From a virus (taxonomy: Duplodnaviria > Heunggongvirae > Uroviricota > Caudoviricetes): a stretch of 64,000 nt of DNA. A program made the position numbers and the translations under genes. Numbering within the stretch: the first letter of the stretch is position 1; every line of letters begins with the position of its first letter. The notes under the pieces were generated by a model that had not been told where the DNA came from, made no database searches, and saw only the letters and a list, made by a program, of their open reading frames with translations. Positions 12,228 to 37,476 of the stretch are shown piece after piece. Where the stretch lies: the IMG/VR virus record IMGVR_UViG_3300043119_000318. One strand, given 5' to 3'.

Positions 12228-12256
12228 ATTTTACCTCTTTGTTGCATTAAAGTCAA
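12228..12256 (-). promoter_or_regulatory. Sigma70-type promoter TTGACT-17-TAAAAT (host-type early promoter).
   Basis: The minus strand reads TTGACTTTAATGCAACAAAGAGGTAAAAT directly downstream of the hairpin at 12262-12282. Confidence 0.55.
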
Positions 12257-12261
12257 GCGAT

Positions 12262-12282
12262 AACCCTACTCTCAGTAGGGTT
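12262..12282 (-). terminator. Terminator hairpin of the repeated cassette.
   Basis: AACCCTACtctcaGTAGGGTT, followed on the minus strand by TATCGC and a promoter. Confidence 0.5.
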
Positions 12283-13196
12283 TACCAGGGGTCTCCGGAC
12301 AACTTTACTGATGATGCCATCTTTTCAGATTCAAATTTAAATCGAATCTTCATTATCTTTTTACTACCAGCAGATACACCGATTGATTCATTACCAACGA
12401 TCTCTAACTTGATATCGTATTTACTAAGAGCATCTAGTTTTGGATTATTAATTGGATCCATAACCATTGCTTTATATGGTGCTTTGTTCCCTTGACCAGT
12501 AACTTTAATATAGGGAGGAGATATAACTTCAGCATCCATCCAATCTGATAGCAGATATTTCTTTAGCTCGGGTTGTTTCATTTTCTGTAAACGCAGCATC
12601 ATAACATCACGCATAGCTGCTAAAACCTTTACACCGATCTCTTCAGTCTGTTTTTTAATTCCAGGATTTTCTCGAATATATGGTTTTCTCAGAGTGTCAG
12701 ATGGAGGAAGATTAAACTTTTTAATTGTTTGCGCCAACTGATTCTTATATTCTTCACCAAGTTTAAGTCCAAGGTTTCTATCAACAGTTCCAACACCTGG
12801 ATTCTTAAATCCGATATCACCTTTGCCTTGAGTAGCTTTAGCTGACAGACCGAGGAATCCTTTAGATGGACCAGAGTTAAATTTAACTAAGATGTCTGTA
12901 GGATTTTTCTTCTGATCGACTGGTTCTCCAAAGGCATCAGCCATAGAACCTGGACGAGCAGTCCACCAGACCCCTACTATTGGAGTCTTATATCCATTTT
13001 GTTTCGCCCACTTAATGAATTCTTCTGCCATCACTGCAGATTTACCAATAGCATCAGCTACTTCATCAGCATTTGCTTGTTTGCATCTCTCGTTAAATTG
13101 CTGTTTAGCAGCGTTGTCGTACCATTCGTTTCCGTTTAGAACGTAGCCAGTGTAGATTTCATTGATATCTGATAGTATTGTATTTGCTGTTGCCAT
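12282..13196 (-). CDS. Hypothetical protein.
   Basis: A 304-aa ORF with no confident motif. It contains an SPPY tetrapeptide but no clear SAM-binding motif. Confidence 0.35.
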   Translation of the reverse strand: MATANTILSDINEIYTGYVLNGNEWYDNAAKQQFNERCKQANADEVADAIGKSAVMAEEFIKWAKQNGYKTPIVGVWWTARPGSMADAFGEPVDQKKNPTDILVKFNSGPSKGFLGLSAKATQGKGDIGFKNPGVGTVDRNLGLKLGEEYKNQLAQTIKKFNLPPSDTLRKPYIRENPGIKKQTEEIGVKVLAAMRDVMMLRLQKMKQPELKKYLLSDWMDAEVISPPYIKVTGQGNKAPYKAMVMDPINNPKLDALSKYDIKLEIVGNESIGVSAGSKKIMKIRFKFESEKMASSVKLSGDPW

Positions 13197-13238
13197 GATT
13201 CCAATCCATATGTCTGCATCATGTATTTAGGTCACATT

Positions 13239-14585
13239 TCAACCAAAGAAAGATTCTAGATCTACAGTGTTATCTTCAAAGTGTTCATCAAACATTTTAC
13301 GAGCCAGCTTTGGCAGCTTAGGGTCGTGATTAGATTTGGTCTTCAATTCATTTAGATAACCAGTTTGCTTACCCATTGCGAGATCGACATAGTGCTGAGC
13401 GATCACCTTACGATCAAACTGTTTAATCAGTTCATAGTTGTTCAACTGAATCTGTTTGTATGCTTCTGGGCTCATATCGCAGTACTCTGTGATTTTTTCA
13501 GCGTATTGTCTTGGTGTATAAGAACGCTTCAACATACAATAATTGATACCTGCCTTTAGAACAACTCCATTACCTTCTTCGTTGTTGGAAACACCGTAGT
13601 TAATTGCAATGGGAACAGTACCAATACGCATGGCATCAATCACCACACGGTTGAAATGCTCGCCATAGGTATTTGACCAGCTTGGATCTACAAGAAATTT
13701 AGATGTAGTTAGGATCTCATCACGCTTACCGCCAGAGATAAAGCCAAGGTAGTCGAAGGTGCCAGAGTTTTCAGCATTTTCCCAGATACGCTTACCCAAC
13801 ATTTTGTCAGTTGCATCTGGATCATACTCCTTCGTACAGTAGTATTCTTCCTTACACTTTTCCTTGGACATCATGTATGCAGCTTCCATACCATAACCAC
13901 CTACCAGAGTTTTAACCATTGGCATGTGTGGAACTGCACGAACTAAGTCATCAACACGCTTCCAACGCTTGAATGTTTGAATAGAAAGGATCTTGTTCTC
14001 ACGACCAGCATATCTTGGAGTCTCAGGAATACCAGCGATGTCTTGTGGGTTCAGAATCATTGCACGCGGAACGTTCATGAAGTCAGCTGAATCATACGCT
14101 GCAGGATGCACACATGCCAGACCTGCAAAATGTTGTTCGAACAATTGAATCCAAGTATACAACTTCTTCAGATTACCGTCATGAATAATGGCAACTTGTT
14201 TCGCTTTAACCTTCTCGATCATCGGCAGCCAGTTGACATCTTTCTCAGTGTCTTTGTTCTTAAATCCAAAGATAGATTGCCAGATTACGATGTCATGTTT
14301 GTTAGCATCCTCAACGAATTTATTGATAGACTCTTTAACTTTGTAAGAGTAGTAAGGTGCCATCCAACCATCACCCTGGTGGACAGGATAACCTGAGCCA
14401 ACACCAATCTCCCATCCTTCACCCAGCGTTTCAGGAATCTGAACTGGGCGAACAGTTTTATTACCCTTCAAATATGCAAAGTTAACTTCGTGACCAAGCT
14501 CTTTTAAACCAGCCATCAAATGTTCACAGTGATTGATGATACCACCGAAGTTATTGAACGTATGCATTACCATTAAAATTTTCAT
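13239..14585 (-). CDS. GT-B fold glycosyltransferase (GT4-like) with a C-terminal clamp-binding-like tail (VDLESFFG).
   Basis: The N-terminus MKILMVMHTFNNFGGIINHCEHL...GHEV and the C-terminal EHFNRVVIDAMRIGTVPIA (Ex7E-type) block are GT4 hallmarks. The tail resembles T4 gp43 SLDFLFG. Confidence 0.6.
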   Translation of the reverse strand: MKILMVMHTFNNFGGIINHCEHLMAGLKELGHEVNFAYLKGNKTVRPVQIPETLGEGWEIGVGSGYPVHQGDGWMAPYYSYKVKESINKFVEDANKHDIVIWQSIFGFKNKDTEKDVNWLPMIEKVKAKQVAIIHDGNLKKLYTWIQLFEQHFAGLACVHPAAYDSADFMNVPRAMILNPQDIAGIPETPRYAGRENKILSIQTFKRWKRVDDLVRAVPHMPMVKTLVGGYGMEAAYMMSKEKCKEEYYCTKEYDPDATDKMLGKRIWENAENSGTFDYLGFISGGKRDEILTTSKFLVDPSWSNTYGEHFNRVVIDAMRIGTVPIAINYGVSNNEEGNGVVLKAGINYCMLKRSYTPRQYAEKITEYCDMSPEAYKQIQLNNYELIKQFDRKVIAQHYVDLAMGKQTGYLNELKTKSNHDPKLPKLARKMFDEHFEDNTVDLESFFG

Positions 14586-14599
14586 AATTATCTTTCAGT

Positions 14600-15937
14600 T
14601 TAAAAGAAGTCTTCAAGCGAAGATTTAACAGAGTCTGGATGATACTTCTGCAAAACAGTAGTTCCCATCTTCGATTCTAGGTAGTCATACCAGTCTTGGC
14701 TTTCCCACATACCAGAACCAACACCATTCCAGAGTGGACGCCACTCTGGATGTTCTTTATTTAGACGACGAGATTCAACAAAGTCAAATCGACAGTCTTC
14801 ATATTCCTTAGTACCGAGCTCAAGCATCTTCTCACGGAAGTAAACCACAAGCGAAATACGCTCAGAACCTTCTTGACAGACGATAGGAGTATTTCCGTGC
14901 ATAACTTCATGGTTGTTGATCAGAAGCAAATCACCGGGACGAACGTTAACAGCTACACGATACTCAGGTGCAACAAGGTAAGCACCGCTGTAACGACCAT
15001 CGTTGGATAGAGTCAACAAGTTAGACAACCCGCTAGTCAAGTCACCGGCATCGTAGTGAGCAGCTGTGCGGAAAGTTTTGTTAACAGTTACAGTGGTGAA
15101 TGGTGTTCCAGGAACCAGGAATTGCTTATCAATCTTCGAAGCAGCTTCCATTTGATTCCCATAACGCCATGGGAGCAAATCTTTAAATCCAGCAGCAAGG
15201 GTTTGTAGGAAAGGAAAAGCCATGGCAAACTTCTCAGGATTCTTCTGAGTATAAGAAGTGGCGCGACCATAAGGGATGCGTGGATAGCGATCGAACCAAC
15301 CAGCAATACCAGAGTTAACAGAGTTAGCATAGGTGGTGGCGCAGATCAGTTTCTCAGCCACGTACTTGGCGGAAGCAATCTGCTCATCCTCGGAAAGAAT
15401 TTTAGTGGCATCTACCCATGCTTCAAAGTTGAACTTATCTTTCTGAACACGGTCAATGGACCATACATTGGAACGATTCGAGATGACACCTTTCTTAGAA
15501 GCATGCTTCTTACGAATTTCTTCTACTGGATCTTCGCCGAACAGGTTACCAGTTGGCTTGAGAAAATAGTCAACCATGTCATACTCATACTCAGTGACCC
15601 AATCGCGATTGCCTAACTTATCAGCACGCGGACCTGCAGCCAAACCTCTGTTCTGAGTTTCGATGGCAGCTTCACGTAGACCTGCATAGGCAGCATCCTG
15701 CTGTTCTTTGGTGAAGAAGTTCTTGCGAAACTTCATGATGATTCTACGCTCGTCCTTATTCTCAATCGAATCACCATATTCTGGCGGAGCGTACACATCA
15801 CAATCTTCTTCCAACAGAACATCGTAGTGAGACTCGTCTAGAAATTGACCCAACAAATGAGTGCAATCATGTTTTCTATCAGCGACAATAACCTTTACCA
15901 TATAATTCTCCTTAGAACTTAAAACCTTCGTAGCCAT
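14600..15937 (-). CDS. 2OG-Fe(II) dioxygenase, a candidate nucleic-acid base oxygenase (TET/JBP-like), with C-terminal SSLEDFF identical to the tail of this phage's DNA polymerase.
   Basis: An HYD (HxD) motif, about 55 aa to NNHEVMHG, then ERIS (RxS) about 13 aa later. The final 7 aa are identical to those of gp43. Confidence 0.55.
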   Translation of the reverse strand: MATKVLSSKENYMVKVIVADRKHDCTHLLGQFLDESHYDVLLEEDCDVYAPPEYGDSIENKDERRIIMKFRKNFFTKEQQDAAYAGLREAAIETQNRGLAAGPRADKLGNRDWVTEYEYDMVDYFLKPTGNLFGEDPVEEIRKKHASKKGVISNRSNVWSIDRVQKDKFNFEAWVDATKILSEDEQIASAKYVAEKLICATTYANSVNSGIAGWFDRYPRIPYGRATSYTQKNPEKFAMAFPFLQTLAAGFKDLLPWRYGNQMEAASKIDKQFLVPGTPFTTVTVNKTFRTAAHYDAGDLTSGLSNLLTLSNDGRYSGAYLVAPEYRVAVNVRPGDLLLINNHEVMHGNTPIVCQEGSERISLVVYFREKMLELGTKEYEDCRFDFVESRRLNKEHPEWRPLWNGVGSGMWESQDWYDYLESKMGTTVLQKYHPDSVKSSLEDFF

Positions 15938-17315
15938 CTGTCTTCAACCGTTTACCGAATTCACTCTTATCAAACATCGGACCGTCATCATGGCTTCGTT
16001 TACCTGCGTCGGACAAACCTTCTTGAGCAGAAATCTCAACATCATAGAGTTTCATCTTCGAGCGATCAATACCAAGAACAAATCTCTTATAGTAGTTCAG
16101 ATCATTGTAACGGTTCTTCAATTGCTTAACGATGATCTGATTCAACTGCTCAAGTTCTTCGTTTGATACCAAGGCAAACATAAAGTCAGCAGTGGCAGGC
16201 AAGCCGAATGATTCTGAAGTATCTTCCAATCCTGGATCGCTATTCGTGAAACCACCTCTGGTAGTTTGAGTTGCCGAAATAATCGGAACGTTGTACTCTA
16301 CTGCCAGACCACGAAGCTCTTCAGCGATTGCCTTTACATATGTATAAGAATTTACATTCGCTCCCTGCTTCATACGTTGAGAAGCGCAGATGTTTAAATA
16401 GTCGATCATGATAATGTCAGGGATGAATTCTCGCTTTAGCTTTAGCTCTTCTAACAAGGCACGGAAATGTCCAGCGTGCGCTGATGCAGTAGGATACTCT
16501 TTGACGATTAGCTTACCTTGAGTCTTTTTAGCGATTTTACCAATACGCGTATTGAAGACTTCTCTATCAACAACCTTCAATTCATCCATGGTCAGGTTCA
16601 AGAGATTCGCGTCAATACGTTCTGCGATGCGCTCCTCAGCCATTTCCATAGTTATGTATAAGACATTTCTACCCTTGGTTAGTGCACCAGCTGCCACGTG
16701 ACACATGAACAAAGACTTACCAACACCAGTGCCGGCAAGCGCAATGTTTAGAGTTTTACGAGACAGACCACCTTTAGTGATAAGGTTAAACATCTCCAAA
16801 TCGAACGGAATCTTTTCTTCTATTCTGTTATAGAAGTCAAATCGTTCCTCAGCATTCTCAATGTAATCATGACCAATGTGATTGTCAAAGCAAGTGCCAA
16901 GTGCTTCAGACAACAATGAAGGGATCGCATCCTTACTGTGGACTTGGTCTTTTCCTTCAATGATTTTAATGGAAGCAAGAATGGCGTTGTAAACTGCTCG
17001 GTCTTTACAGAATTGCTCTGTTTGCTCAAGCAGCCATTCTTGGTTCTTTTCTTGAGTGTTTAGACTTTGAAGATATTCAGTATATTCTGGGACTTCTTTG
17101 TCAGTCAACCCCTTGAGGTTGGCGATCTCAATAGCCAGAATTTCTGTAGATGCTGTCTTATTGTACTTCGTGAAGAAGGAAACAACAAGACTTGCGATCA
17201 TAGCATCTTTGCGATCCGCAAAGTATTCTTTCTTAAGATGTGGAACTACCTTTCTGCAATACTCCTCATTATTGATGAGATTTGAAAGAATCGTTTTCTC
17301 TAGAGTCATCAACAC
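15912..17315 (-). CDS. 41: Replicative DNA helicase, DnaB-like (T4 gp41 homologue).
   Basis: Walker A GTGVGKS and RecA-like DnaB C-domain. The N-terminal region is similar to T4 gp41. Confidence 0.8.
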   Translation of the reverse strand: MLMTLEKTILSNLINNEEYCRKVVPHLKKEYFADRKDAMIASLVVSFFTKYNKTASTEILAIEIANLKGLTDKEVPEYTEYLQSLNTQEKNQEWLLEQTEQFCKDRAVYNAILASIKIIEGKDQVHSKDAIPSLLSEALGTCFDNHIGHDYIENAEERFDFYNRIEEKIPFDLEMFNLITKGGLSRKTLNIALAGTGVGKSLFMCHVAAGALTKGRNVLYITMEMAEERIAERIDANLLNLTMDELKVVDREVFNTRIGKIAKKTQGKLIVKEYPTASAHAGHFRALLEELKLKREFIPDIIMIDYLNICASQRMKQGANVNSYTYVKAIAEELRGLAVEYNVPIISATQTTRGGFTNSDPGLEDTSESFGLPATADFMFALVSNEELEQLNQIIVKQLKNRYNDLNYYKRFVLGIDRSKMKLYDVEISAQEGLSDAGKRSHDDGPMFDKSEFGKRLKTDGYEGFKF

Positions 17316-17639: not shown

Positions 17640-18203
17640 TTAGTCTCCAATCAATGCAAGTTCAGCATCAATGTCTTCACCCTTCATAATTTCTGAAGTC
17701 GAAACTTGATACTTATTTTTAACAAACTCAGAGAAAGTCTTTTGCTGAATAATTGGAAGCCAGAAGTCTTTGCTATCGGTATCCTTCAGACGATACTTTT
17801 TATCTTCAACAACGCCATCTTGATCTACTTTGCTGTACCATCCATTGCTTGGTTTAACGACATGTCCAGATTCTAGAGCAATGTCAAGTAAGCCAGACCA
17901 ACGGCTAATGCCGCCGTCAAAAGATACGCTAACAGGTATTTTAGATTTCTCACGAACATAACGACTCTTTTCTACGTTGATGATAAAGTTGTAACCAACA
18001 ATTTCAGTTCCGTCTTTTTCTTGTTGACGACCAAGAATGAAGATATTGTCAGCAGAGTAGTAAGAACCAGTGTTATGAGTAACTACTCCATTTTCTAACA
18101 CATAATGTTCAACATCCTTTACTGAAATGTCATATACCTTCTTTTTACCAACAGGTGTTATCGATTTAATTTTCATTTTGCGGTTTCCTTTTACATTTAT
18201 CAT
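17640..18203 (-). CDS. uvsX: UvsX recombinase C-terminal fragment, preceded by the C-terminal half of a split intein (IntC).
   Basis: The N-terminal 44 aa, KKKVYDISVKDVEHYVLENGVVTHN, are followed by the +1 Thr (intein blocks F/G). The remainder, GSYYSADNIFILGRQQ...FINVEKSR...SGLLDIALESG, aligns to T4 UvsX from MTGG|TGVMYSADTVFIIG onward. Confidence 0.75.
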   Translation of the reverse strand: MINVKGNRKMKIKSITPVGKKKVYDISVKDVEHYVLENGVVTHNTGSYYSADNIFILGRQQEKDGTEIVGYNFIINVEKSRYVREKSKIPVSVSFDGGISRWSGLLDIALESGHVVKPSNGWYSKVDQDGVVEDKKYRLKDTDSKDFWLPIIQQKTFSEFVKNKYQVSTSEIMKGEDIDAELALIGD

Positions 18204-18870
18204 TATGCCATCTTTTTATATTAGAGGCAGTCGTCACAGTATCACAATGAGAACATTTATATTTCTGTTCGGGTTTCAATTTTCTTGGGTTAACCCAATC
18301 GGAACAATTAAATCTACCATCAGAAATTGATACTCTAATTATTTCTTTAGTATGCACATTTTGTAACATTCTAAGACCCTTCTTTCCGATCTTCTCTCTA
18401 TGTTCATTAGATTTCGGTTTTTTGGCGACCATCTCAACCCAATCAGATATCTGTTTTTCAGTTCTATAATTCTTTCCAGAATGTATATTAGATAATTTCT
18501 GTTTAGTTTCTTCAGAATGGTGTTTACCATAGAAATTGTTACCTTCACCTGAATACTGTATCGATAGAATTTTTGAACGTTCTTTTTTACAGTATTCAAA
18601 TAAATGAGAATTTATAGATCTGGCGCTTTGACCAACCCCAATTCTACTCATCGAATGCCATGCATGAACCAGACTACTAGTTTTATACATTTTATACAAC
18701 AACCAATGCGCCAAATAGTGCTGTCTTGCAGTTAGTAGAACTAGATTCTCTTTAGAGTCATCACCACCCATACAACAAGGTATTATATGATGAGATTCCT
18801 TATAGTCATCTAGTTTTGGATTAGTTTTAGCATCTAAAACTAAGTTCTCGTAAATTTTATAATAGTTCAT
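18166..18870 (-). CDS. Free-standing HNH homing endonuclease.
   Basis: HHIIPCCMGGDDSKENLVLLTARQHYLAH (HNH) near the N-terminus. It lies in a different frame between the two uvsX halves. It has its own TATAAATA late promoter and a GGAGG Shine-Dalgarno sequence. Confidence 0.75.
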   Translation of the reverse strand: MNYYKIYENLVLDAKTNPKLDDYKESHHIIPCCMGGDDSKENLVLLTARQHYLAHWLLYKMYKTSSLVHAWHSMSRIGVGQSARSINSHLFEYCKKERSKILSIQYSGEGNNFYGKHHSEETKQKLSNIHSGKNYRTEKQISDWVEMVAKKPKSNEHREKIGKKGLRMLQNVHTKEIIRVSISDGRFNCSDWVNPRKLKPEQKYKCSHCDTVTTASNIKRWHNDKCKRKPQNEN

Positions 18871-18886
18871 AGTTTCCTCCTACAAC

Positions 18887-18894
18887 TATTTATA
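18887..18894 (-). promoter_or_regulatory. T4-type late promoter TATAAATA serving the HNH endonuclease gene.
   Basis: The minus strand reads TTTTATAAATAGTTGTAGGAGGAAACTATG: TATAAATA, 16 nt, then ATG, with a GGAGG Shine-Dalgarno sequence. Confidence 0.55.
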
Positions 18895-18906
18895 AAATTT
18901 TGAATC

Positions 18907-19815
18907 TTAGTATTCAGCTGATTCCATACCAACAGCCAAATTTTTAGCCTCTACCCATTCATTATTAATTAAAAATTTGTGTTTATCTGAACAAATAACC
19001 TTATATCCATCTTCAAATTCCACCTCAAAACACTCAGGCTCGCCATCTTCTAGTGTTTCTGGATTCCAGGTATATGTTACTTCTTTGCTACCATCAAGGG
19101 TTTTAACTAAATCACCAACTACGAAATCCTCAATAGATTTATATGTTCCATCTGATAGTTCTATTTTCGTGCCTGCAACCAAACAACCACCACCAACGAT
19201 GTCCTTTGGATACAATCCGATTTCTTTATACGTATGGTTCACAACAACCATAGGAATATCCTTCATGGTCAAGTGTGGAGTTACCATACGGAACAACGAC
19301 TTCATTTGCTTGGCACGGCTCATATCGGCAACCGACTTACCGTCCAAGGCATCCTCGACTTCTTTCTTAGAAGCAAGATTACCAATGGAGTCAATGATGA
19401 TCATGATTTTATCACTACGCTCGATGACAGAAAGTTGCTGCATGATATCAAACTTCAACTGTTCAACGTCCATGATTGGAGTATGCACAACACGCGAAGT
19501 ATCAATACCAAACGAATCGAAGTAAGACTGTGGAGTGCCGAACTCAGAATCATAGAACAGCAAAGCTGATTCTGGATACTTGTCCATGTATGACTTTGCC
19601 ATCAGCAAAGAGAATGCGGTCTTAAAGTGTTTCGATGGACCTGCCCACATCGTGAGTCCAGGAACGAATCCACCGTCAAGTCGACCTGAAAGTGCGACGT
19701 TGATTACGGGAATAGAAGTGGGAATCATATCCTTCTTCTGAAAGAACTTTGATTGTGCAAGAATCGCAGTTTCTTTAATTGTAGTATTTTTCTTAATTTT
19801 ATCTAGTATGCTCAT
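18907..19815 (-). CDS. uvsX: UvsX recombinase N-terminal fragment (RecA-like core, Walker A/B), fused in frame to the N-terminal half of a split intein (IntN).
   Basis: A RecA/UvsX-like N-extein up to IVGGG. From Cys211 the sequence reads CLVAGTKIELSDGT...SDKHKFL (Hint blocks A and B) and ends after about 93 aa. Confidence 0.8.
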   Translation of the reverse strand: MSILDKIKKNTTIKETAILAQSKFFQKKDMIPTSIPVINVALSGRLDGGFVPGLTMWAGPSKHFKTAFSLLMAKSYMDKYPESALLFYDSEFGTPQSYFDSFGIDTSRVVHTPIMDVEQLKFDIMQQLSVIERSDKIMIIIDSIGNLASKKEVEDALDGKSVADMSRAKQMKSLFRMVTPHLTMKDIPMVVVNHTYKEIGLYPKDIVGGGCLVAGTKIELSDGTYKSIEDFVVGDLVKTLDGSKEVTYTWNPETLEDGEPECFEVEFEDGYKVICSDKHKFLINNEWVEAKNLAVGMESAEY

Positions 19816-23700: not shown

Positions 23701-24209
23701 TAAGCACTCTTTCCGTATAGCAGCATCATCGCGTCGAGAGCACAGTCATGCACCGGATGGTGTTTGATGACTTCGTGTCTCTTAAAAGTTGGGTGTTCGA
23801 TATCGCAGTATCCATTGCTGGAACCACTAAGCAGGTCAACTGCTGTTCTCATATCTCTCCACATATTATACCCCGTTATAGGCTGCATGTCAACTTTCCT
23901 TGCCAAGCTATCAATAGCCAACTGATCAAGAGAACCTCGTGCCCACATGGTATGTTTGTTTGCATTCGGATACTTGTTCATATAGTTGTGCAGTGCAGTG
24001 ATTGCATCTTCAGCTGGCATATCATCGGGTTTCGGATCGAATGAAAGAGCACGAACAAATTCATGCTGATTCTTCCACCACTCAAGCGTGTCAACATCAA
24101 CGCTACGTTTGAGTCTTTGGATCTGATCTTTGGCATTCAGCTTAACAAAGATAGCATCATCCAAGAGTTTCTGATAGTCAGGCTTTTCTTCAGGGTCAAA
24201 ATAAATCAA
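23700..24209 (-). CDS. DnaQ/DEDDh-like 3'-5' exonuclease (DexA-like).
   Basis: C-terminal HHPVHDCALDA resembles Exo III motif H-x4-D. It lies directly upstream of gp43. The match is weak. Confidence 0.4.
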   Translation of the reverse strand: MIYFDPEEKPDYQKLLDDAIFVKLNAKDQIQRLKRSVDVDTLEWWKNQHEFVRALSFDPKPDDMPAEDAITALHNYMNKYPNANKHTMWARGSLDQLAIDSLARKVDMQPITGYNMWRDMRTAVDLLSGSSNGYCDIEHPTFKRHEVIKHHPVHDCALDAMMLLYGKSA

Positions 24210-24985: not shown

Positions 24986-26289
24986 TTAATATCTCCATCA
25001 GAGTCTGCAACATCTTTGTCGCTGCGAATTTCAACAAAGATCGGGAGGAACAAAGATTCTTCACCCAACCTGTTCTTGATACGACAATTATACTTGACCG
25101 CAGCGATTTTGTCAAGTAAGTTTTCTTTGAATAGTGCCTTGCGTTGATCGTCGTTGAAACCTGAACCAACACGAGTCTTTACAACACCGTCCGCGGATTC
25201 GCAAAGAATCGCACCAAGCATTCCAACATACTTACCAGTACCTTCTTCAACGCCAACGATCTTCAGGTCACATTCCAACTCACCCTTAAATTTGATCTGG
25301 TGCTTGGCACGTTTATCTTCCCAAACACCGGAACCATCCTTGAGGATAATACCCTCAAGACCATTCGCAAGATATTCTTCGAACTTAGCATTAGCTTGTT
25401 CTTGATTCTCAACGAGATCGTTAGAGACCAACCAGATCTTTTTCTTGCGGTCATCAGTGTTGTTCAACAGATCAGACAACGCAGAAAATCGTTTAGCGTA
25501 GGGAGTGGCGCAGTAGCCATCTGCAAATAGAATGTAAGGAATCATATCCCAAACCGTGGCATGGACCATGGCTGCTTCTTTAGCAGAGATAGTTCCTTTG
25601 TTAGCTTTATTGAGAATTCCATTGCCAGTCTGACGATCCATAAACTGGAAGTCTTCCGGATGCATGACCATAAGCTCACCGTCGAACACACAATCACTAT
25701 CGCCAGCAAGTGCCAAGAATTCTTGCTCCAAGTTACCCAGAAGTTGAATCTCTTTGCCGTTTCGGCTACGGAATTCCACTGCACCGTTACGCACGATGGC
25801 ATTGAAACGCATACCGTCCATCTTTAGCTGAACATAGGCAGGGAACTTGATCTTGTCGACTAGCTTCTGCTCAAAGGGAGAGCAAAGCATCACCGGGTAT
25901 TCATGCACCAGACCCATCCAAACTTTGTTTGCAGTGCTAGCGGAGAACCCTGCGCGAAGATCTTTCCCGATAACTTTCTCGATAACCTTGGCATCATCTG
26001 CAGTTAGGCTGGACAAGATGAATCGAAGAAATTCGATACCGACGTTTCCTGTGCGCTCACGCGAGGAAAGTTCATACAATCGATCCAGTGCCCAATTTAG
26101 AGTGCAACCAATAGTATGTTGAGTATCATACTTTGGAATCTTACGGATATAGAATTGTGTGAACGGACAGTATGCCAGACGGATAACTTCGCGAAGGGTT
26201 TCGTTATCACGGTTAGCTTCTAGCTGCTCGATTTTGAAATTGCGAGATGCGTTGGCAGCGAGAGATTCTAGAAAATCATTAATATTCAT
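24982..26289 (-). CDS. 30: ATP-dependent DNA ligase.
   Basis: LKMDGMRF (KxDGxR adenylation motif I), DGELMV (motif III), EGIILK and a C-terminal OB-fold region. Confidence 0.7.
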   Translation of the reverse strand: MNINDFLESLAANASRNFKIEQLEANRDNETLREVIRLAYCPFTQFYIRKIPKYDTQHTIGCTLNWALDRLYELSSRERTGNVGIEFLRFILSSLTADDAKVIEKVIGKDLRAGFSASTANKVWMGLVHEYPVMLCSPFEQKLVDKIKFPAYVQLKMDGMRFNAIVRNGAVEFRSRNGKEIQLLGNLEQEFLALAGDSDCVFDGELMVMHPEDFQFMDRQTGNGILNKANKGTISAKEAAMVHATVWDMIPYILFADGYCATPYAKRFSALSDLLNNTDDRKKKIWLVSNDLVENQEQANAKFEEYLANGLEGIILKDGSGVWEDKRAKHQIKFKGELECDLKIVGVEEGTGKYVGMLGAILCESADGVVKTRVGSGFNDDQRKALFKENLLDKIAAVKYNCRIKNRLGEESLFLPIFVEIRSDKDVADSDGDIK

Positions 26290-26469: not shown

Positions 26470-26706
26470 TCAAGCGATCACGACGAGACGCGGGAACTCG
26501 GGTTTATCGTTGAACATTTCGCCGTTGAGAGGAGCGACGAAGAAGTCAGGATTCTTTTTCTTGACTTCTTCATCATCAAAAACGCGAGCCATGAATTCGC
26601 AGCGAACCGTGCGGTCCATCTCAGAGATCGAGACGATCTTGCCAATCATGTAGCAGCTGTCAACACCGTTGAAATCGTAGGACTTGATCACGTTACCAAC
26701 TTGCAT
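26470..26706 (-). CDS. Hypothetical protein.
   Basis: A 78-aa ORF directly downstream of a sigma70-type promoter at 26736-26764. Confidence 0.3.
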   Translation of the reverse strand: MQVGNVIKSYDFNGVDSCYMIGKIVSISEMDRTVRCEFMARVFDDEEVKKKNPDFFVAPLNGEMFNDKPEFPRLVVIA

Positions 26707-26735
26707 TTCGTTTCCTTTTTACTCATCATACAGCT

Positions 26736-26764
26736 ATTATACCGCGGATGTGAATTAAAGTCAA
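26736..26764 (-). promoter_or_regulatory. Sigma70-type promoter TTGACT-17-TATAAT.
   Basis: The minus strand reads TTGACTTTAATTCACATCCGCGGTATAAT downstream of the hairpin at 26779-26797. Confidence 0.6.
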
Positions 26765-26778: not shown

Positions 26779-26797
26779 AACCCTACACTCAGTAGGG
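26779..26797 (-). terminator. Terminator hairpin of the repeated cassette.
   Basis: ACCCTACactcaGTAGGGT. The minus strand is followed by TTTTTG. Confidence 0.55.
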
Positions 26798-26828
26798 TCT
26801 TGTAGTCTTGTATGGAGAGCCTACATAG

Positions 26829-27122
26829 TTAGCCCGTATACAGGGCAGACGCAGGAGCTACAACGATACCAGATCCGAAGATACGATTATATTCATTGGC
26901 TAATTGATCGTCGGCAGTACCTTCCAATGCAATTGAATGTTTAAATAAATACAAATCTTCTTTAGTATATGGTAAGAATGGGGCTAAGGCAATACCCATT
27001 CCGGAATTAGTTTGTTTAACTAAAACAGAAGCAGGATTATCTAAATGGTATCCAATCTCTGACCCACTAGTAACTTTACTAATAATTTCTTCGCCAGTAA
27101 TCAATTTAAAAATTCTAATCAT
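26829..27122 (-). CDS. Hypothetical protein.
   Basis: A 97-aa ORF. Confidence 0.3.
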   Translation of the reverse strand: MIRIFKLITGEEIISKVTSGSEIGYHLDNPASVLVKQTNSGMGIALAPFLPYTKEDLYLFKHSIALEGTADDQLANEYNRIFGSGIVVAPASALYTG

Positions 27123-30460: not shown

Positions 30461-30482
30461 TTGGAGGTTCAATATTGAACCT
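30461..30482. terminator. Perfect 22-bp palindrome, a bidirectional hairpin between gp45 and gp44.
   Basis: GGAGGTTCAATATTGAACCTCC. The minus strand is followed by AATTTTTATTAT. Confidence 0.5.
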
Positions 30483-30503
30483 CCATAAATGGTCTAAAAA
30501 TTA

Positions 30504-31195: not shown

Positions 31196-31224
31196 ATTAT
31201 ACCCCAGAACTGAGTATGGGGCAA
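31196..31224 (-). promoter_or_regulatory. Possible promoter (TTGCCC-17-TATAAT) overlapping a hairpin upstream of gp45.
   Basis: TATAAT at minus 31201..31196. The -35 is weak. The hairpin CCCCAgaactgagtaTGGGG lies in the spacer. Confidence 0.35.
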
Positions 31225-33231: not shown

Positions 33232-33750
33232 TTAAAGTTCAATACCGTGAGTGCGAAGAATAGCGTTGAAGTCTTCAAGATCTTCGTCGTAGGCAGCCGA
33301 CTCACCGATAGCGTCGATGAGACGATTCTTGTTCTTAACGACGGGAGCATCCTCAGATTCCGTAGCAGGCACAACCTTCGGTGCCTTAGGTGCTTTCGGT
33401 GCCTTGGGAGTCTTGGCGACTACGACCTTCGGAGCCTTGGGTACCTTCACGACCACTGCCTTCGGAGCCTTAACAGACTTGCCGGCACAATCCTGAGCGT
33501 ACTGAGACAGCTCGGCATCAGTGGGAACTGGCAGCTGATACAAGCCACGGGAAATCTTATTCGTCGGGAACAGCCAGTTCGGGTAACCAACTTTGACGCC
33601 CCCAGATTCACGCTTTTCAGCCAGGTCCATAAAGATGGCATGGACCAGTTTGAGCGTCACTTCGGGATTGGTCTTAATAGAGGGAGTGTGCTCGATGTAA
33701 GCAACGATCAGCTTCTTTTGAGCCATGGTCAGGTCAGCGAAATTCAACAT
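33232..33750 (-). CDS. Basic Lys/Pro/Ala-repeat protein (histone-H1-like tail). Possibly DNA-binding.
   Basis: Repeats of KAPKAVVVKVPKAPKVVVAKTPKAPKAPKAPK. The start was moved to 33750 because a TTGACT-17-TATAAT promoter occupies 33780-33808 and AAAGGAAA precedes that ATG. Confidence 0.4.
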   Translation of the reverse strand: MLNFADLTMAQKKLIVAYIEHTPSIKTNPEVTLKLVHAIFMDLAEKRESGGVKVGYPNWLFPTNKISRGLYQLPVPTDAELSQYAQDCAGKSVKAPKAVVVKVPKAPKVVVAKTPKAPKAPKAPKVVPATESEDAPVVKNKNRLIDAIGESAAYDEDLEDFNAILRTHGIEL

Positions 33751-33779
33751 AATATATTTCCTTTTCAAGTTTGTAAATA

Positions 33780-33808
33780 ATTATACCGCATTAGTGAATT
33801 AAAGTCAA
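33780..33808 (-). promoter_or_regulatory. Sigma70-type promoter TTGACT-17-TATAAT.
   Basis: The minus strand reads TTGACTTTAATTCACTAATGCGGTATAAT downstream of the hairpin at 33822-33841. Confidence 0.6.
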
Positions 33809-33821
33809 GCGATATCGTAAA

Positions 33822-33841
33822 GACCCTACGGTCTGTAGGGT
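33822..33841 (-). terminator. Terminator hairpin of the repeated cassette.
   Basis: GACCCTACggtctGTAGGGT. The minus strand is followed by CTTT. Confidence 0.55.
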
Positions 33842-33843
33842 TA

Positions 33844-35019
33844 TCAGAACGGAACCTCGTCGGTCGACGCTTCCATCGGATTTTGCACAGGATCGGTTTC
33901 ATCTGGTGTGGAAACCTTCTCGAACAGATCTTTAAACGCGATCTTAGTCGCAGCATCAAACCGATTGCAGCACAGTTCGATTGCCTTAGCACGATTCTTG
34001 AAGATCGCATATGCGCGAACAATATGAATCATACGGCGAGTTGTGATCGTCTCATCAACACCACCGTCCTCGAAAGTGCGGCGAATTGCGTCAGCCCACT
34101 TAACGAGCGTCTCTGCGAACTCATCGTCAACACATCCGAAAGATTGCATAAGGTTCTTAATGATTTTGATTTCTACCCGAGCAGAGGGATATTCCTGCTC
34201 GAAGGTAACAGCGAAACGCTCCAAGAATGCTTCGTTCAGAACGTTAGTACCGATATAACGACCATCGTCAGAACCCTTACCCTTGGTATTTGCAGTTGCA
34301 AAGATATTGAAGCCAGGAGTAGGAACGATCATCTCGTTCTTCAGCTTGAAGTAGTATGGCTTACCTTCCAAGATAGATTGCAGGCAAAGCGTAGTGTTTG
34401 CTGCACCAGCATCAATTTCATCCAGCAAGAGAGCAGTACCATTGCGCATTGCAATAAGCACCGGACCTTCGACGATCTGCACGTTGCCGTCGACGAGAGT
34501 CTTGGAGCCGATGAGTTGTTCCTCATCGGTCATCATATTCAAGTTAACTCGAATCAGAGGACGCTTGTGCTTGGCGCAAATTTGCTCGATCATGGTGGAC
34601 TTACCGTTACCGGTCGGACCGCTGATGTAGCAAGGATAGAAAATACCAGACTTGACAATGTTCTCGAGGTCTGCGTAGTTACCAAAGGGAACAAAATTCG
34701 GATCCCTCTGAGGAATGAGCGATTCGATATTCGAATAATCAACTTCAAACGACTCAATGCGCACTTCGGGTTTGCGTGGTTCTGGCTTAATGCGAACCAC
34801 TACTTCTTGAGTAGTATCCGGAGAAGAGTCAGGCATCGCATAGATGCCTCGCGACAACCGATTAACCATCAGCCAATGCGGGCTCTTTTTGGTATTCAGT
34901 GCAGTCATCGTTTCAACGATTTCTTTACTCTTGACAGTTCCACTGGTCTTGATGTCGGGGAACAACTCAAAGAGTTTAGCCTCGAACGCAGCCGCAAACA
35001 CGCTATCAATTTTACTCAT
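33844..35019 (-). CDS. cobS: CobS-like AAA+ (MoxR-type) ATPase.
   Basis: Walker A SGPTGNGKST, Walker B LLLDEID and an arginine finger region. The start was moved to 35019 (MSKIDSV) downstream of the promoter at 35045-35073. Confidence 0.7.
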   Translation of the reverse strand: MSKIDSVFAAAFEAKLFELFPDIKTSGTVKSKEIVETMTALNTKKSPHWLMVNRLSRGIYAMPDSSPDTTQEVVVRIKPEPRKPEVRIESFEVDYSNIESLIPQRDPNFVPFGNYADLENIVKSGIFYPCYISGPTGNGKSTMIEQICAKHKRPLIRVNLNMMTDEEQLIGSKTLVDGNVQIVEGPVLIAMRNGTALLLDEIDAGAANTTLCLQSILEGKPYYFKLKNEMIVPTPGFNIFATANTKGKGSDDGRYIGTNVLNEAFLERFAVTFEQEYPSARVEIKIIKNLMQSFGCVDDEFAETLVKWADAIRRTFEDGGVDETITTRRMIHIVRAYAIFKNRAKAIELCCNRFDAATKIAFKDLFEKVSTPDETDPVQNPMEASTDEVPF

Positions 35020-35044
35020 CACACACTCCATCTTGTAAAAACTT

Positions 35045-35073
35045 ATTATACCGCGACACTGAATTAAAGTCAA
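35045..35073 (-). promoter_or_regulatory. Sigma70-type promoter TTGACT-17-TATAAT upstream of cobS.
   Basis: The minus strand reads TTGACTTTAATTCAGTGTCGCGGTATAAT downstream of the hairpin at 35086-35105. Confidence 0.6.
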
Positions 35074-35085
35074 GCAATGCAAGAA

Positions 35086-35105
35086 GCCCTACACCTTGTA
35101 GGGTC
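35086..35105 (-). terminator. Terminator hairpin of the repeated cassette, downstream of cobT.
   Basis: GCCCTACAccttTGTAGGGTC. Confidence 0.5.
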
Positions 35106-35112
35106 TTCTCGC

Positions 35113-37209
35113 TCAGGCGACGTACCCGATGAACTTGTTCAGCAGCACACGAGAAGTCTTTTTATTTCCCATAAATTTCGAGAAATTCCTAGCGATTGCA
35201 GCGGCAGACATATCAGAAGCAGCTTTAATTTCACCGTCATTAATTTTAGTCGAGCTCGCAGGAACCAAAAACAATTCGTCACGACCAGCATTTGTCAAAG
35301 ATGCATAACCAAACTCTTTGAATTCTTTACGAATGTCAACAATAGTTTGCGTCATATCAGCACGAAACTCTGGAATATTATTGTTGATGGCGTTTCGAAT
35401 CACACCCGAATTATTGTTGCAGATGTAAAAACCCACAACATTAATTCGGTATCGGTCCTTAATCATATTCAAAATAGAGCAGGTTTGCACAGTTTCGTTA
35501 GATGAAAATTCATAATTCTTTTTCGTGTAAATATCACGAACGAAATGTTTATTCTTGAAATAAACATGCCTACCAAAAGAATCCTGCTCCCATCCGTTAG
35601 GTTGGAGGCGACCTTTATTAGAATACAACTCTCCACCCTCTCCATCAGTCAGAGTGATCAGAGTCATTTTCTCGATGTTTCGATTCTTGATAAATTTGTC
35701 GATATAATTATACATATAGACCAATGCCTCATTCAAAGGAGTTCCTCCCAAACTATATCCGCCCTGTTTCTGACGGAAAAAGGAATAGGTAGTCAACGTC
35801 CGACGAATCATAGTATTGAAATCAGCAGAGGACATTTTATCAGAGAACAACTCTAGCAGATTGAAAGTGCCAGAATTATTGCAAATCACTTGTTTGTCTG
35901 CTAGCGAATCAGGAGAATATGGCTTATAGATATTATCTCCTTTATAATAGCTAGTGAATGCAAACACCTGATACGGAATGTTGGCACGCTGGCAAAACAT
36001 CGCCAGATTAATCACCTGTTTGATAGTGTCTTGAATAACATCAATCATAGAACCAGACCAATCCAGAAGGAAAACCATACCATGGTTCTTGCCAGCAGGA
36101 ATAGTGGTGACACGTTTGAACAAATCGTCGTTCAACTTATACGACCAAACCTTGCCCATATCCAAAGAACCAGACTTCGAAGTCTGAGCTCGTTTGTACA
36201 ACGTGGCAGATTTACGCATCTCGAATTCTTTCACGAGATAACTCACAACTCGATCAGTCTCCTGCTTAAACTGTGAGATATACATCGAATCCACATACTC
36301 ATCAACTTCCTTAGTCTCATTCAGGATGGTTTTGTATCCAACGATCGGGTCTTCTTTATATTGAGACTCCAACTCATAATACGTATACCGAACAGAAGAA
36401 TCTGCCAAGGAAGCCAGTTTTTTATCGAAAGCATCTGCAGTCTTGGCTTCCAGATCTTCTTCCTCAATTTTCGGTTTGCGAATAGACCTTGACGACTTCC
36501 GATCAGAATCATCATCGTACTCGTCTTCATCATCTTCGTCATCATCATAGGAAGAAGAGCTACCGAATTCTTCATCGGTATCATCTTCGTCTTCATCATC
36601 GAAGTAGTCTGAATCATCACCACTGAATTCGTCATCGAATTCCCGTTTATCTGCATCATTCTTATGCTTAGAGTACTCCCTAATCTCGTTAGCCAAGGAG
36701 ATGATATCGTCGATGGTCTCGGTGTTTTCTGCTCGGTTAACGAATTGCTTTTCTTTAGGTGTGAACGTGACTCCGCAATCAAAACCAACCTTAAAGTAAA
36801 GATTGAGTTTGTCAATCAGAAGCAGGGTATTCAGATTCTTCGCAGATTTAATTCCAAAGAAATCTCGCTGATTCAGTTGGCGATATCCCTCAGTCATCGT
36901 TTTACGAATACCCGGATAGAGTCGCTTGATCAGTTTTTCTACACGAACATCTTCTAGGATGTTCATGTACGACATAAGCGCAGGATTTTCTTTAATGGGT
37001 TTGATGTAGGAGACATCAGTGAACAGAGCGTGACCGACCTCATGTCCGATCAACATCGACTCAATCTCCGGCGTGGTGTCTTTCCAATTAGGAAGCGTCA
37101 ACGTCCGATTCTTAATGTCGAAGGACGCGGTGGAAGTTGGCGCACGAACAACGGAGATGTTCTCGGTAGCCAGCAGCTTGGCTGACAGATCAAAGGTGTT
37201 TTGTTTCAT
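35113..37209 (-). CDS. cobT: CobT-like protein with an acidic Asp/Glu tract and a C-terminal von Willebrand A domain.
   Basis: A long DDEDEDD... tract. vWA-type MVFLLDWSGSM (MIDAS DxSxS). Paired with cobS as in marine myoviruses. Confidence 0.6.
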   Translation of the reverse strand: MKQNTFDLSAKLLATENISVVRAPTSTASFDIKNRTLTLPNWKDTTPEIESMLIGHEVGHALFTDVSYIKPIKENPALMSYMNILEDVRVEKLIKRLYPGIRKTMTEGYRQLNQRDFFGIKSAKNLNTLLLIDKLNLYFKVGFDCGVTFTPKEKQFVNRAENTETIDDIISLANEIREYSKHKNDADKREFDDEFSGDDSDYFDDEDEDDTDEEFGSSSSYDDDEDDEDEYDDDSDRKSSRSIRKPKIEEEDLEAKTADAFDKKLASLADSSVRYTYYELESQYKEDPIVGYKTILNETKEVDEYVDSMYISQFKQETDRVVSYLVKEFEMRKSATLYKRAQTSKSGSLDMGKVWSYKLNDDLFKRVTTIPAGKNHGMVFLLDWSGSMIDVIQDTIKQVINLAMFCQRANIPYQVFAFTSYYKGDNIYKPYSPDSLADKQVICNNSGTFNLLELFSDKMSSADFNTMIRRTLTTYSFFRQKQGGYSLGGTPLNEALVYMYNYIDKFIKNRNIEKMTLITLTDGEGGELYSNKGRLQPNGWEQDSFGRHVYFKNKHFVRDIYTKKNYEFSSNETVQTCSILNMIKDRYRINVVGFYICNNNSGVIRNAINNNIPEFRADMTQTIVDIRKEFKEFGYASLTNAGRDELFLVPASSTKINDGEIKAASDMSAAAIARNFSKFMGNKKTSRVLLNKFIGYVA

Positions 37210-37212
37210 GGC

Positions 37213-37386
37213 TCAAGTATACTCCAGGTCTGAATTAAAGGCAAGACAATACTCGTGCTCTTCGATGAGAGTCTCGAGGTAGACACGGTTGGTGATCCTA
37301 CGGTCTGACCCAAAATTCACGTAGTCGTGCAAGTTGTATGAGACTGCCAGTTCAGCGAGCTCAAAGTCAGAGAAGTCGTTCCACAT
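37213..37386 (-). CDS. Hypothetical small protein.
   Basis: Lies downstream of the promoter at 37414-37442. The start was set at the internal Met preceded by AGGAAAG. Confidence 0.25.
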   Translation of the reverse strand: MWNDFSDFELAELAVSYNLHDYVNFGSDRRITNRVYLETLIEEHEYCLAFNSDLEYT

Positions 37387-37413
37387 GTTTAGCTTTCCTA
37401 AGTTCATACAGTT

Positions 37414-37442
37414 ATTATACTGTAGATGTGAATAAAAGTAAA
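37414..37442 (-). promoter_or_regulatory. Sigma70-type promoter variant TTTACT-17-TATAAT.
   Basis: Same cassette architecture with a weaker -35. Downstream of the hairpin at 37457-37476. Confidence 0.45.
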
Positions 37443-37456
37443 GCTAAGAACAAAAA

Positions 37457-37476
37457 GACCCTACGGTCTGTAGGGT
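37457..37476 (-). terminator. Terminator hairpin of the repeated cassette, downstream of gp46.
   Basis: GACCCTACggtctGTAGGGTC, identical to the stem-loop at 33822. The minus strand is followed by TTTTTG. Confidence 0.55.

Follow-up and report, generated by a model that had tools for sequence, protein, structure and literature searches.

Promoter early stem-loop elements (PeSLs) were defined in the phages RB49 and phi1 as conserved intergenic cassettes of about 100 bp, in which a stop codon, a stem-loop, a sigma70-like early promoter, a Shine-Dalgarno sequence and an ATG follow one another (Arbiol et al. 2010, PMC2839356). Their promoter and terminator activities were measured with lacZ fusions, and mini-circles were found to result from recombination between copies (PMC2839356). 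PeSLs were later described in T4/PST and KVP40/nt-1, with the stem-loop just 5' of the promoter and with lineage-specific stem and promoter consensi (Comeau et al. 2014, PMC4122927); the layout includes a -35 element, a spacer of 17 nucleotides (nt) and a -10 element (PMC2839356, PMC4122927). A search in cyanophage S-PM2 returned few (PMC4503421). Extended early-promoter consensi of T4-like phages are lineage-specific as well, that of T4 being GTTTAC...TATAAT (Nolan et al. 2006, PMC1524935). Here we analyse a repeated hairpin-promoter cassette in a stretch of 64,000 nt (the window), which is nearly the whole of a 64,320-bp metagenome contig from the Joint Genome Institute (JGI) with all its long open reading frames (ORFs) on the minus strand. 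The element has every structural feature of a PeSL, namely the layout over about 100 nt, the 17-nt spacer, a characteristic stem, copies in direct orientation and a T4-like genome around it, and it is a further member of this class, already known from other T4-like phages. We consider it likely that the cassettes are PeSL-type regulatory elements, combining a stem-loop with an early promoter, of an uncultured clade of T4-like phages. The observations behind this reading are the anatomy of the cassettes, their non-random repetition, their conservation across the clade, the covariation of orthologous stems and the variable genes that stand behind them. No published description of this CCCTAC cassette was found, though no literature search was aimed at it.

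Five copies, numbered 1 to 5 by their promoter sites at 12228, 26731, 33780, 35045 and 37414, are present on the minus strand where a sequence-only reading had placed them. Along this strand each consists of a CCCTAC-N5-GTAGGG hairpin, the segment TTGACTTTAATTCA (with one or two substitutions in two of the copies), a 17-nt spacer and TATAAT or TAAAAT. The exact hairpin motif occupies 12264-12280, 26781-26797, 33824-33840, 35087-35103 and 37459-37475, and 5-15 nt, counted from the extended stem, separate it from the -35. The promoter hexamers had been read correctly: TTGACT stands at the -35 of every copy except the 37414 one, which has TTTACT; the -10 reads TATAAT except for TAAAAT in the 12228 copy; and 17 nt exactly lie between the two hexamers in each of the five. 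All hairpin-bearing copies are intergenic and every copy lies on the coding strand; in four of them the stem adjoins the stop codon of the upstream gene or overlaps it, and in copy 2 it is found 30 nt past the stop. When folded, the stems have predicted stabilities of -12.4 to -23.1 kcal/mol (z from -2.7 to -6.4). The identity that had been noticed between the stems at 33822 and 37457 (copies 3 and 5) extends over 23 nt (ACCCTACAGACCGTAGGGTCTTT). Downstream of the -10 there are two layouts, either a conserved short leader (..TGTATGA.., a Shine-Dalgarno sequence of the AAAAGGAA type, ATG) or an ATG exactly 6 nt on. The module, previously put at roughly 65 nt, is indeed repeated, but the conserved unit is longer, about 95-110 nt, and runs from the upstream stop codon through the conserved initial transcribed region (..TGTATGA..) and the Shine-Dalgarno sequence to the ATG.

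This repetition is not random. CCCTAC-N5-GTAGGG was found five times in the window, against 0.01 expected from dinucleotide-preserving shuffles, and the 14-mer TTGACTTTAATTCA, with up to two mismatches, gave six matches, all on the minus strand, against 1.59 expected. As a guard against circularity, a 41-nt weight matrix was built from 29 cassettes of related contigs only, with the window excluded; it returned exactly six matches in the window, at 27-41 bits, whereas none of 100 simulated sequences exceeded 19.6 bits. The earlier count of at least five copies is borne out by five full cassettes and one promoter-only copy (37204-37244). Plain sigma70 hexamer matches were not enriched in the region (48, against 46.8 in shuffles); it is the extended motif and the hairpin, not generic hexamers, that make the repetition significant. 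The units headed are a DUF6267 protein (copy 1), an ORF of 78 amino acids (aa) with a 60-aa ORF and a DNA ligase (copy 2), a KAPK protein (copy 3), cobS (copy 4), a 57-aa ORF (copy 5) and a cobT-like gene (the sixth copy). The ligase downstream of copy 2, previously named an RNA ligase, is an ATP-dependent DNA ligase.

The extended promoter can be written ..GC-TTGACT-TTAATTCA-N8-G-TATAAT. The pattern TTKACTTTAATTCR-N8-GTATAAT, with 21 specified bases, occurs at no fewer than 119 loci in viral contigs of IMG/VR, while the same pattern has 17 matches in 596 gigabases from 185,579 bacterial species genomes. These 17 fall in AT-rich Firmicutes and similar bacteria, show no homology to the window and give no clue to the host. 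Because it is clade-wide yet nearly absent from bacteria, the extended promoter is a signature of the phage clade and not a copy of a widespread host promoter. The spacer measures 17 nt in 29 of 32 cassettes of relatives, and the TTTAATTCA block (-29 to -21) is under selection across a large phage clade. The extended consensus of the closest isolate, Methylophilales phage Melnitz (family Kyanoviridae), differs (gcc-TTGACWTTTGTT..AACATGTATAMT), in keeping with the rule that early-promoter consensi differ from one T4-like lineage to the next (PMC1524935); the first 50 kb of Melnitz contain no CCCTAC hairpin. At one locus (L301, 6073-8390), six exact copies of the extended promoter stand within 2.3 kb, each heading a small ORF and each with a near-identical leader (..TAGATTGAGATAAGGAATAT..), an arrangement that resembles the dense arrays described for PeSL-rich hyperplastic regions.

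In many T4-like phages the replication genes belong to the middle class, and the TTTAATTCA block beside the -35 (about -29 to -21), for which an additional protein-binding site had been suggested earlier, might be the site of a phage or host transcription factor, in which case the promoters would be of middle type, activator-dependent or repressible, like the MotA-dependent middle-promoter counterparts of PeSLs (PmSLs). The block is conserved as well as the hexamers are, and the post-gp46 promoters of relatives keep TTTWATTC while their -35 degenerates (TTGTCT, TTGCCT). The near absence of the extended motif from bacterial genomes would also suit such a factor, and PmSLs do exist in phage nt-1 (PMC4122927). 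However, -35 and -10 hexamers so close to the consensus and 17 nt apart should suffice for sigma70 alone, no TGCTT MotA box is present at -30, extended lineage-specific conservation is normal in T4-type early promoters without any extra factor (PMC1524935), and no candidate regulator was found, although the contig covers only part of a genome. We regard a factor site as quite unlikely. A MotA-dependent middle promoter or PmSL, tried as a candidate identity, was rejected: the six copies have TTGACT, TTTACT or TTGCCT at the -35 and TTTAATTCA at -29 to -21, and none has TGCTT.

The hairpin, too, extends well beyond the window. A scan of IMG/VR for ACCCTAC-N5-GTAGGGT returned at least 120 loci, and among the matches listed 66 of 127 hairpins were followed, no more than 30 nt downstream, by TTGAC/TTTAC-17..19-TAnnnT, compared with 10 of the 121 listed matches to the permuted control stem ACCCATC/GATGGGT. 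Some 30 of the loci listed for the hairpin share synteny with the 21-48 kb part of the window, their proteins being 50-85% identical in amino-acid sequence. Hairpin and -35 combined into a single exact pattern gave only three loci in viral contigs, the pattern being too strict. A further sample of 80 relatives was taken via gp46 alone (64-76% identity) and should therefore be unbiased for the motif; 78 of these had enough sequence past the gp46 stop. Among the resulting 79 gp46 junctions (window included), roughly one third carry the CCCTAC hairpin. Other stems at this site are CCCTGT/ACAGGG, CCCCAC/GTGGGG, CCCTTG/CAAGGG and CCCCT../..AGGGG, with loops of 3-9 nt, and about 15 of the 78 relatives have no hairpin of any kind there. 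When the 28 distinct post-gp46 hairpins were aligned, seven of nine pairs varied on both sides and the covariation score was 0.325; shuffles gave 0.137, with none of 500 as high, and slid registers gave 0.03-0.09. The outer CCC/GGG pairs are invariant; within the CCCTAC class the whole stem is invariant and the loops vary freely. That an orthologous site keeps a hairpin while its inner stem changes favours a role of the folded strand over a fixed protein-binding site.

This result bears on the possibility that the CCCTAC-N5-GTAGGG palindrome works as DNA, as a site for a dimeric DNA-binding protein, or for a recombinase or nuclease that would target recombination. Arbiol et al. speculated on such a DNA-level role for PeSL stems (PMC2839356), and it would agree with a stem that is identical in the five window copies and in many relatives while loops vary, with the same stem before promoters in contigs not recognisably T4-like, and with the invariance of the outer pairs. 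The post-gp46 half-sites, however, change jointly to other complements around loops of 3-9 nt, as expected of a folded strand. Stems of 6-8 bp, moreover, are unlikely to extrude as cruciforms, and we judge action as DNA very unlikely. An NtcA-type site (GTA-N8-TAC) was rejected, its half-sites being in the opposite order and its spacing different.

Two further observations concern the distribution of the hairpin. Before the promoter of the pre-ligase region, five loci (L014, L028, L046, L049 and L091) have tandem hairpins, a CCCTGT/ACAGGG-like one followed by CCCTAC/GTAGGG. In viral contigs without synteny to the window, CCCTAC-N5-GTAGGG precedes differing sigma70-like promoters, such as TTGACC-N17-GCTATAAT and GGTTGAC..TGGTAAAAC..TGTTATAAT; two such groups are L010, L016, L041, L064, L067, L070 and L093 on the one hand and L045, L060, L095, L099 and L102 on the other. 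A PHROG scan of the non-T4-like CCCTAC contigs gave matches only to families of unknown function.

Synteny maps reveal variable gene content in relatives at three of the five junctions. After gp46, where the window and 11 relatives have the hairpin, the conserved cobT-like gene either comes next or is preceded by a single small ORF, by a 233-aa ORF or by 3.3 kb of additional genes. Ahead of the ligase, hairpin and promoter are found in the window and 11 relatives and are followed by one to four small ORFs, mostly without detectable homology between relatives, then by the conserved 60-aa ORF and the ligase. Before the DUF6267 gene, the upstream genes differ in the single relative available. In 11 relatives the orthologous cassettes can be aligned over the whole stretch that begins with AACCCTAC, includes the Shine-Dalgarno sequence and ends at the ATG. 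The pre-ligase cassette (100 nt) is 76-90% identical between relatives, compared with 70-76% for the upstream coding DNA and 14-50% for the 300 nt downstream, and the fall from 76-90% to 14-50% points to a homology breakpoint at the 3' edge of the cassette.

Clustering of the unassigned ORFs of 135 clade loci into families showed that some families change their place. One of about 230 aa follows gp46 in L118, whereas six other loci have it in the pre-ligase region; in three of the seven (L118, L119 and L323) it is preceded, at no more than 140 nt, by a CCCTAC hairpin and a promoter, and the L118 and L119 members share 74% amino-acid identity. A 66-aa family occupies the pre-ligase slot in ten loci and the slot between cobT and cobS in one. 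At the junction of cobS and the basic-repeat protein, the site of copy 3, ten syntenic relatives have no CCCTAC hairpin; this absence and the 23-nt match to the post-gp46 hairpin suggest that copy 3 is a recent intragenomic copy or the product of conversion. A recombination hotspot had been proposed for the cassettes, and the PeSL literature proposes likewise; the variable slots and the 23-nt hairpin copy are in line with it. An association of the cassettes with plastic regions is suggested but would call for more than these examples.

Copies that are short, numerous and confined to intergenic DNA, one of which (copy 3) looks recently acquired, might also be expected of a selfish mobile repeat without regulatory role, comparable to miniature inverted-repeat transposable elements (MITEs) or repetitive extragenic palindromic (REP) sequences. 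Yet the copies have a single orientation, which matches transcription, hold orthologous positions among relatives that share only 64-76% gp46 identity, and keep a fixed spacing to the stop, Shine-Dalgarno sequence and ATG, in addition to the exact 17-nt spacer. The copies examined, short of a systematic search, have no terminal inverted repeats beyond the hairpin and no target-site duplications. A mobile repeat is extremely improbable.

Taken as a PeSL-type element, the cassette would work as follows. The stem-loop (A)ACCCTAC-loop-GTAGGGT(T) would form in the transcript within 30 nt of the upstream stop and would terminate or attenuate read-through, cap the 3' end of the upstream message, or both. 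At a distance of 5-15 nt, the lineage-specific extended sigma70-type promoter would recruit unmodified host RNA polymerase, and a new transcript would start about 7 nt past the -10, with a short conserved leader and Shine-Dalgarno sequence (..TGTATGA..AAAAGGAA..ATG) or directly at the start codon (leaderless). Since about 100 nt of near-identical sequence are repeated in direct orientation, the cassettes could also act as homology patches, through which the phage recombination system would insert, delete or swap the genes they head.

Several points weigh against this reading. It is from sequence that we infer promoter use, start sites, timing and termination, and recombination likewise. The word early for the timing is taken solely from the sigma70-like form of the promoters, and cyanomyovirus replication genes are usually classed as middle, not early. 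The post-gp46 segments scored for covariation had been chosen by a hairpin finder, so that their pairedness (88.9% of cells) is inflated and partly built in. Only 43 of 115 promoter-seeded family promoters have a hairpin of -8 kcal/mol or lower in the 60 nt upstream (controls, 22 of 115), 19 of the 43 being of the CCCY..RGGG type; on these counts the promoter is the basic unit and its coupling to a hairpin facultative. A short T-run had been ascribed to the copies in general; it is good in copies 2 and 5 (26731 and 37414; TTTTTGCATTT, TCTTTTTGTTCTT) and poor in copies 1, 3 and 4 (TTATCGC, TCTTTACG, CTTCTTGC), which have only four T in the first 8 nt past the stem core, and a generic terminator rule flags a single hairpin (37457-37477). 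Because of the poor U-tracts, efficient intrinsic termination is doubtful for these three hairpins. As for recombination, the near-identical pair L002/L004 (97-99% at cassette junctions) shows no cassette-to-cassette deletion; its two members differ by an indel directly upstream of the gp45 promoter and by a replacement between gp45 and gp44, and the CCCTAC cassette is missing from both of these junctions. Two of the five window cassettes, furthermore, flank conserved cobS. With all this considered, a recombination role for the cassettes is plausible, the chances for and against it being about balanced, and termination or attenuation at the hairpins is plausible too, though not uniform. The earlier description of a portable terminator-promoter unit agrees with the sequence and comparative evidence and matches the PeSL class; its terminator half we infer, and three of five hairpins are without a convincing U-tract.

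The same U-tract deficit, together with the single hairpin that passes the generic rule, could mean that the stem-loop is mainly a 3'-end stabiliser or processing signal of the RNA, with overlapping transcription units and a promoter that would still be a promoter. Upstream transcripts, whether products of read-through or processed, would then have their ends at the hairpin and be shielded there from 3' exonucleases. Stems directly at the stop codon are in the best place for a protective 3' hairpin, and a conserved structure with compensatory changes suits any RNA-level role. A classic GTAGGGTTTTT tail after the hairpin in many relatives speaks for termination instead, as do the published PeSL stem-loops, for which reporter assays demonstrated termination (PMC2839356). 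One role does not preclude the other, and a mainly stabilising one seems somewhat unlikely to us. The best classical terminator of the region stands elsewhere, at 30462-30485 (minus strand) in the gp45/gp44 junction (TGGAGGTTCA-ATAT-TGAACCTCCA, then ATTTTTATTA); its stem is unrelated to CCCTAC, and in relatives this junction contains variable ORFs.

The individual copies, all on the minus strand, are built as follows. In copy 1 the stem-loop AACCCTACT-GAG-AGTAGGGTT (12262-12282; -13.5 kcal/mol, z -2.7) overlaps the stop codon of the gene before it (304 aa; TAA at 12282-12284), and its tail TTATCGC is a weak U-tract. The predicted promoter (12228-12256; 32.5 bits) has TTGACT at 12251-12256 and, after 17 nt, TAAAAT at 12228-12233, and the DUF6267 gene has its ATG (12219-12221) 6 nt past the -10, in leaderless geometry. 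Copy 2 has the stem-loop ACCCTAC-TGAGT-GTAGGGT followed by TTTTGCATTT (26780-26798; -13.7 kcal/mol, z -3.6), 30 nt past the stop of the 97-aa gene 26829-27122. Its promoter and leader (26704-26764; 41.4 bits) comprise TTGACT at 26759-26764, 17 nt, TATAAT at 26736-26741 and AGCTGTATGATGAGTAAAAAGGAAACGAA, and end at the ATG (26704-26706) of the 78-aa ORF, which heads a putative operon with the 60-aa ORF and DNA ligase.

The stem-loop of copy 3, ACCCTAC-AGACC-GTAGGGT (33823-33841; -12.4 kcal/mol), lies directly 3' of the cobS stop (TGA at 33844-33846, then TAA). Promoter and leader (33748-33808; 27.4 bits) consist of TTGACT at 33803-33808, 17 nt, TATAAT at 33780-33785 and the Shine-Dalgarno sequence AAAGGAA, and lead to the start codon (ATG, 33748-33750) of the gene for the KAPK basic-repeat protein (172 aa). 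In copy 4 the CCCTAC-AAGGT-GTAGGG core is lengthened to a stem of 15 pairs (GCGAGAAGACCCTACA...TGTAGGGCTTCTTGC; 35079-35112; -23.1 kcal/mol, z -6.4), which begins on the final base of the stop codon (TGA, 35113-35115) that closes the 698-aa cobT-like gene. The promoter and leader that follow (35017-35073; 31.1 bits) have TTGACT at 35068-35073, 17 nt, TATAAT at 35045-35050 and a GGAG Shine-Dalgarno sequence before the ATG (35017-35019) of cobS, an AAA_5/CbbQ_C ATPase.

Copy 5 opens with the stem-loop GACCCTAC-AGACC-GTAGGGTC, then TTTTTGTTCTT (37457-37477; -13.8 kcal/mol, z -3.4), which overlaps the TGA stop (37476-37478) of the SbcC-like gp46. In its promoter and leader (37384-37442; 40.4 bits), TTTACT at 37437-37442, 17 nt and TATAAT at 37414-37419 are followed by an ATG at 37405-37407, 6 nt past the -10, the Shine-Dalgarno sequence AGGAAAG and the ATG at 37384-37386 of the 57-aa ORF (MWNDFSDF...), a start that relatives keep. 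The sixth copy is a promoter only (37204-37244; 31.8 bits), with TTGCCT at 37239-37244, 17 nt and TATACT at 37216-37221; the ATG (37207-37209) of the 698-aa cobT-like gene lies 6 nt past its -10 without a Shine-Dalgarno sequence, again in leaderless geometry. This promoter coincides with the last eleven codons and the stop of the 57-aa ORF (..CLAFNSDLEYT*), in the window and likewise in relative L108, so that protein C-terminus and promoter would use the same bases; its position inside these codons would account for the missing hairpin.

For the DUF6267 gene the start codon can be argued from the protein. Its domain profile begins at residue 15 of ORF 10986-12221, and the sole upstream in-frame ATG lies 6 nt past the -10; ATG 12219-12221 must accordingly be the true start, which implies a leaderless messenger RNA (mRNA) and not an over-extended ORF. 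The earlier suspicion that ORF calls run through promoters at their N-termini holds for 33844-35082, 33232-33768 and 37213-37407, but not for 10986-12221. Among 106 family promoters, 44 have an ATG 5-7 nt past the -10, in 37 of these at exactly 6 nt, and 37 of the 44 ATGs open ORFs of at least 40 codons whose N-termini are conserved between contigs (e.g. MNIFY.H.D.. and MKN..LYLDMDGV; L244-L348). This suggests that leaderless early mRNAs may be widespread in this phage clade.

The predicted transcripts of leadered cassettes tend to open with ATGATG (L343, L244, L312, L324 and L332). In about 12 cases the ATG at +1 is in frame with a Shine-Dalgarno-led ATG eight codons on (MMIEKELK-M...), against three out of frame; in window copy 2 (26704-26735) the +1 ATG is out of frame. 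For the in-frame cases, either the 24-nt leader length has been fixed by descent or initiation is dual.

A joint reading that goes further can be entertained tentatively. The cassettes would belong to a phage-specific promoter class of a very large uncultured aquatic T4-like clade, with an invariant TTTAATTCA block (-29 to -21) recognised by a factor distinct from regions 2 and 4 of sigma70; in about 40% of cases transcription would start at the start codon, so that many early proteins would be made from leaderless mRNAs, and the CCCTAC hairpin would be exchangeable between phage lineages. We hold this wider picture to be a minority possibility.

The phage itself has a T4-like gene set, including DNA polymerase gp43, clamp gp45, clamp loader gp44, gp46/gp47 (SbcCD-like), UvsX and a DnaB-like helicase, besides the ATP-dependent DNA ligase, cobS, the cobT-like 698-aa protein and the major capsid protein (gp23 homologue). 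Its proteins match those of cultured phages only at a distance: gp43 is at most 55% identical to cyanomyovirus gp43, and the capsid protein is 65% identical to that of Melnitz. A near-identity DNA search with 26-38 kb against 50,697 phage records matched only short pieces of 72-85% in cyanophage gp44 and cobS, so a close cultured relative appears to be lacking among them. BLAST of one cassette against phage isolates gave no match, the 91-nt query being too short to be informative. Rfam gave no match at gathering score in the whole window and none at E≤1 in 33700-37550, and ARAGORN found no transfer RNA (tRNA) or transfer-messenger RNA. The T4 late-promoter box TATAAATA was not enriched (3, against 4.07 expected), and no contrast of early and late regions could be drawn from it.

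Other features of the window lie outside the cassettes. uvsX is seemingly split (17640-19815) into a RecA_N-like ORF (18907-19815) and a T4_UVSX_C ORF (17640-18203), and the 234-aa ORF with a NUMOD3 motif between them (18166-18870) is probably a homing endonuclease insertion. A Tet/JBP-family dioxygenase gene (14600-15937) adjoins a glycosyltransferase gene (13239-14585), a pair (13239-15937) that suggests hydroxymethylation and glycosylation of the phage DNA. Two promoters that match the sigma70 consensus at 12 of 12 positions (TTGACA-17-TATAAT, G at -13) lie inside coding sequence on the minus strand, one at 23865-23893 in the 3' part of an Rv2179c-like exonuclease gene upstream of gp43, the other at 25087-25115 close to the 3' terminus of the ligase gene. 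Additional strong promoter sites are found upstream of gp45 (31196-31224) and of gp46 (39392-39420), and all four strong sites are without the TTTAATTCA block and without a hairpin.

For annotation, in this contig as in hundreds of its metagenomic relatives, the cassettes would indicate where transcription units end and begin and which start codons are likely to be the true ones; a search key of 29-41 nt retrieves members of the uncultured T4-like clade. With them the PeSL idea, in which regulatory cassettes also serve as recombination linkers, would extend from enterobacterial and vibrio phages to an environmental lineage related to cyanophages and phage Melnitz. Leaderless translation of early genes, if common in the clade, would constrain the possible hosts. 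Current understanding is not overturned by these findings.

Compared with other known systems, the cassettes recall morons and integron-like gene cassettes in that small genes with their own promoter and terminator vary in content at fixed slots. Unlike integron-like cassettes, they come with no integrase or attC, and the flanking repeats would themselves be regulatory; moron accretion is independent of conserved linkers (discussion in PMC2839356). Like intrinsic terminators, they have a GC-based stem of 6-15 pairs with a loop of 3-5 nt just past a stop codon, followed by a T-run in copies 2 and 5 and in many relatives, whereas ordinary terminators do not share a stem sequence among copies, and three of five window hairpins have four T in the first 8 nt. 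With T4-like early promoters they share sigma70-type hexamers with extra conserved positions (a G at -13 here, a G/T-rich position 5' of the -10 there) and a location 5' of replication-gene orthologues and novel small ORFs, and in relatives after tRNA genes. The extra block of the window promoter, in contrast to T4, lies within the spacer (-29 to -21) and is not an upstream A-tract, and its -35 (TTGACT/TTTACT) is preceded by GC, not by a G at -36; the spacer block of the Melnitz early promoter is different again (TTGACWTTTGTT..AACATGTATAMT).

The closest likeness is to PeSLs. Activity was measured only for those of RB49/phi1, where mini-circles were also found, whereas the window cassette is known from sequence alone and its phage and host are uncultured. 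Its stem, (A)ACCCTAC/GTAGGGT(T), differs from the G(n)-loop-C(n) of RB49, the A3-4G3-loop-C3T3-4 of nt-1 and the AGNA-loop-TCNT of PST/T4; no A-rich UP-like tract lies between hairpin and -35; the promoter is distinguished by an extended consensus of its own, TTKACTTTAATTCR-N8-GTATAAT; and some copies would feed leaderless ORFs. What the window element has in common with PeSLs is the intergenic composite of about 100 nt, the many direct copies per genome and the phage-specific conserved stem. Its cassettes, as in the PeSL systems, head small variable ORFs and some auxiliary genes, with one ORF family found behind cassettes whose loci differ among relatives.

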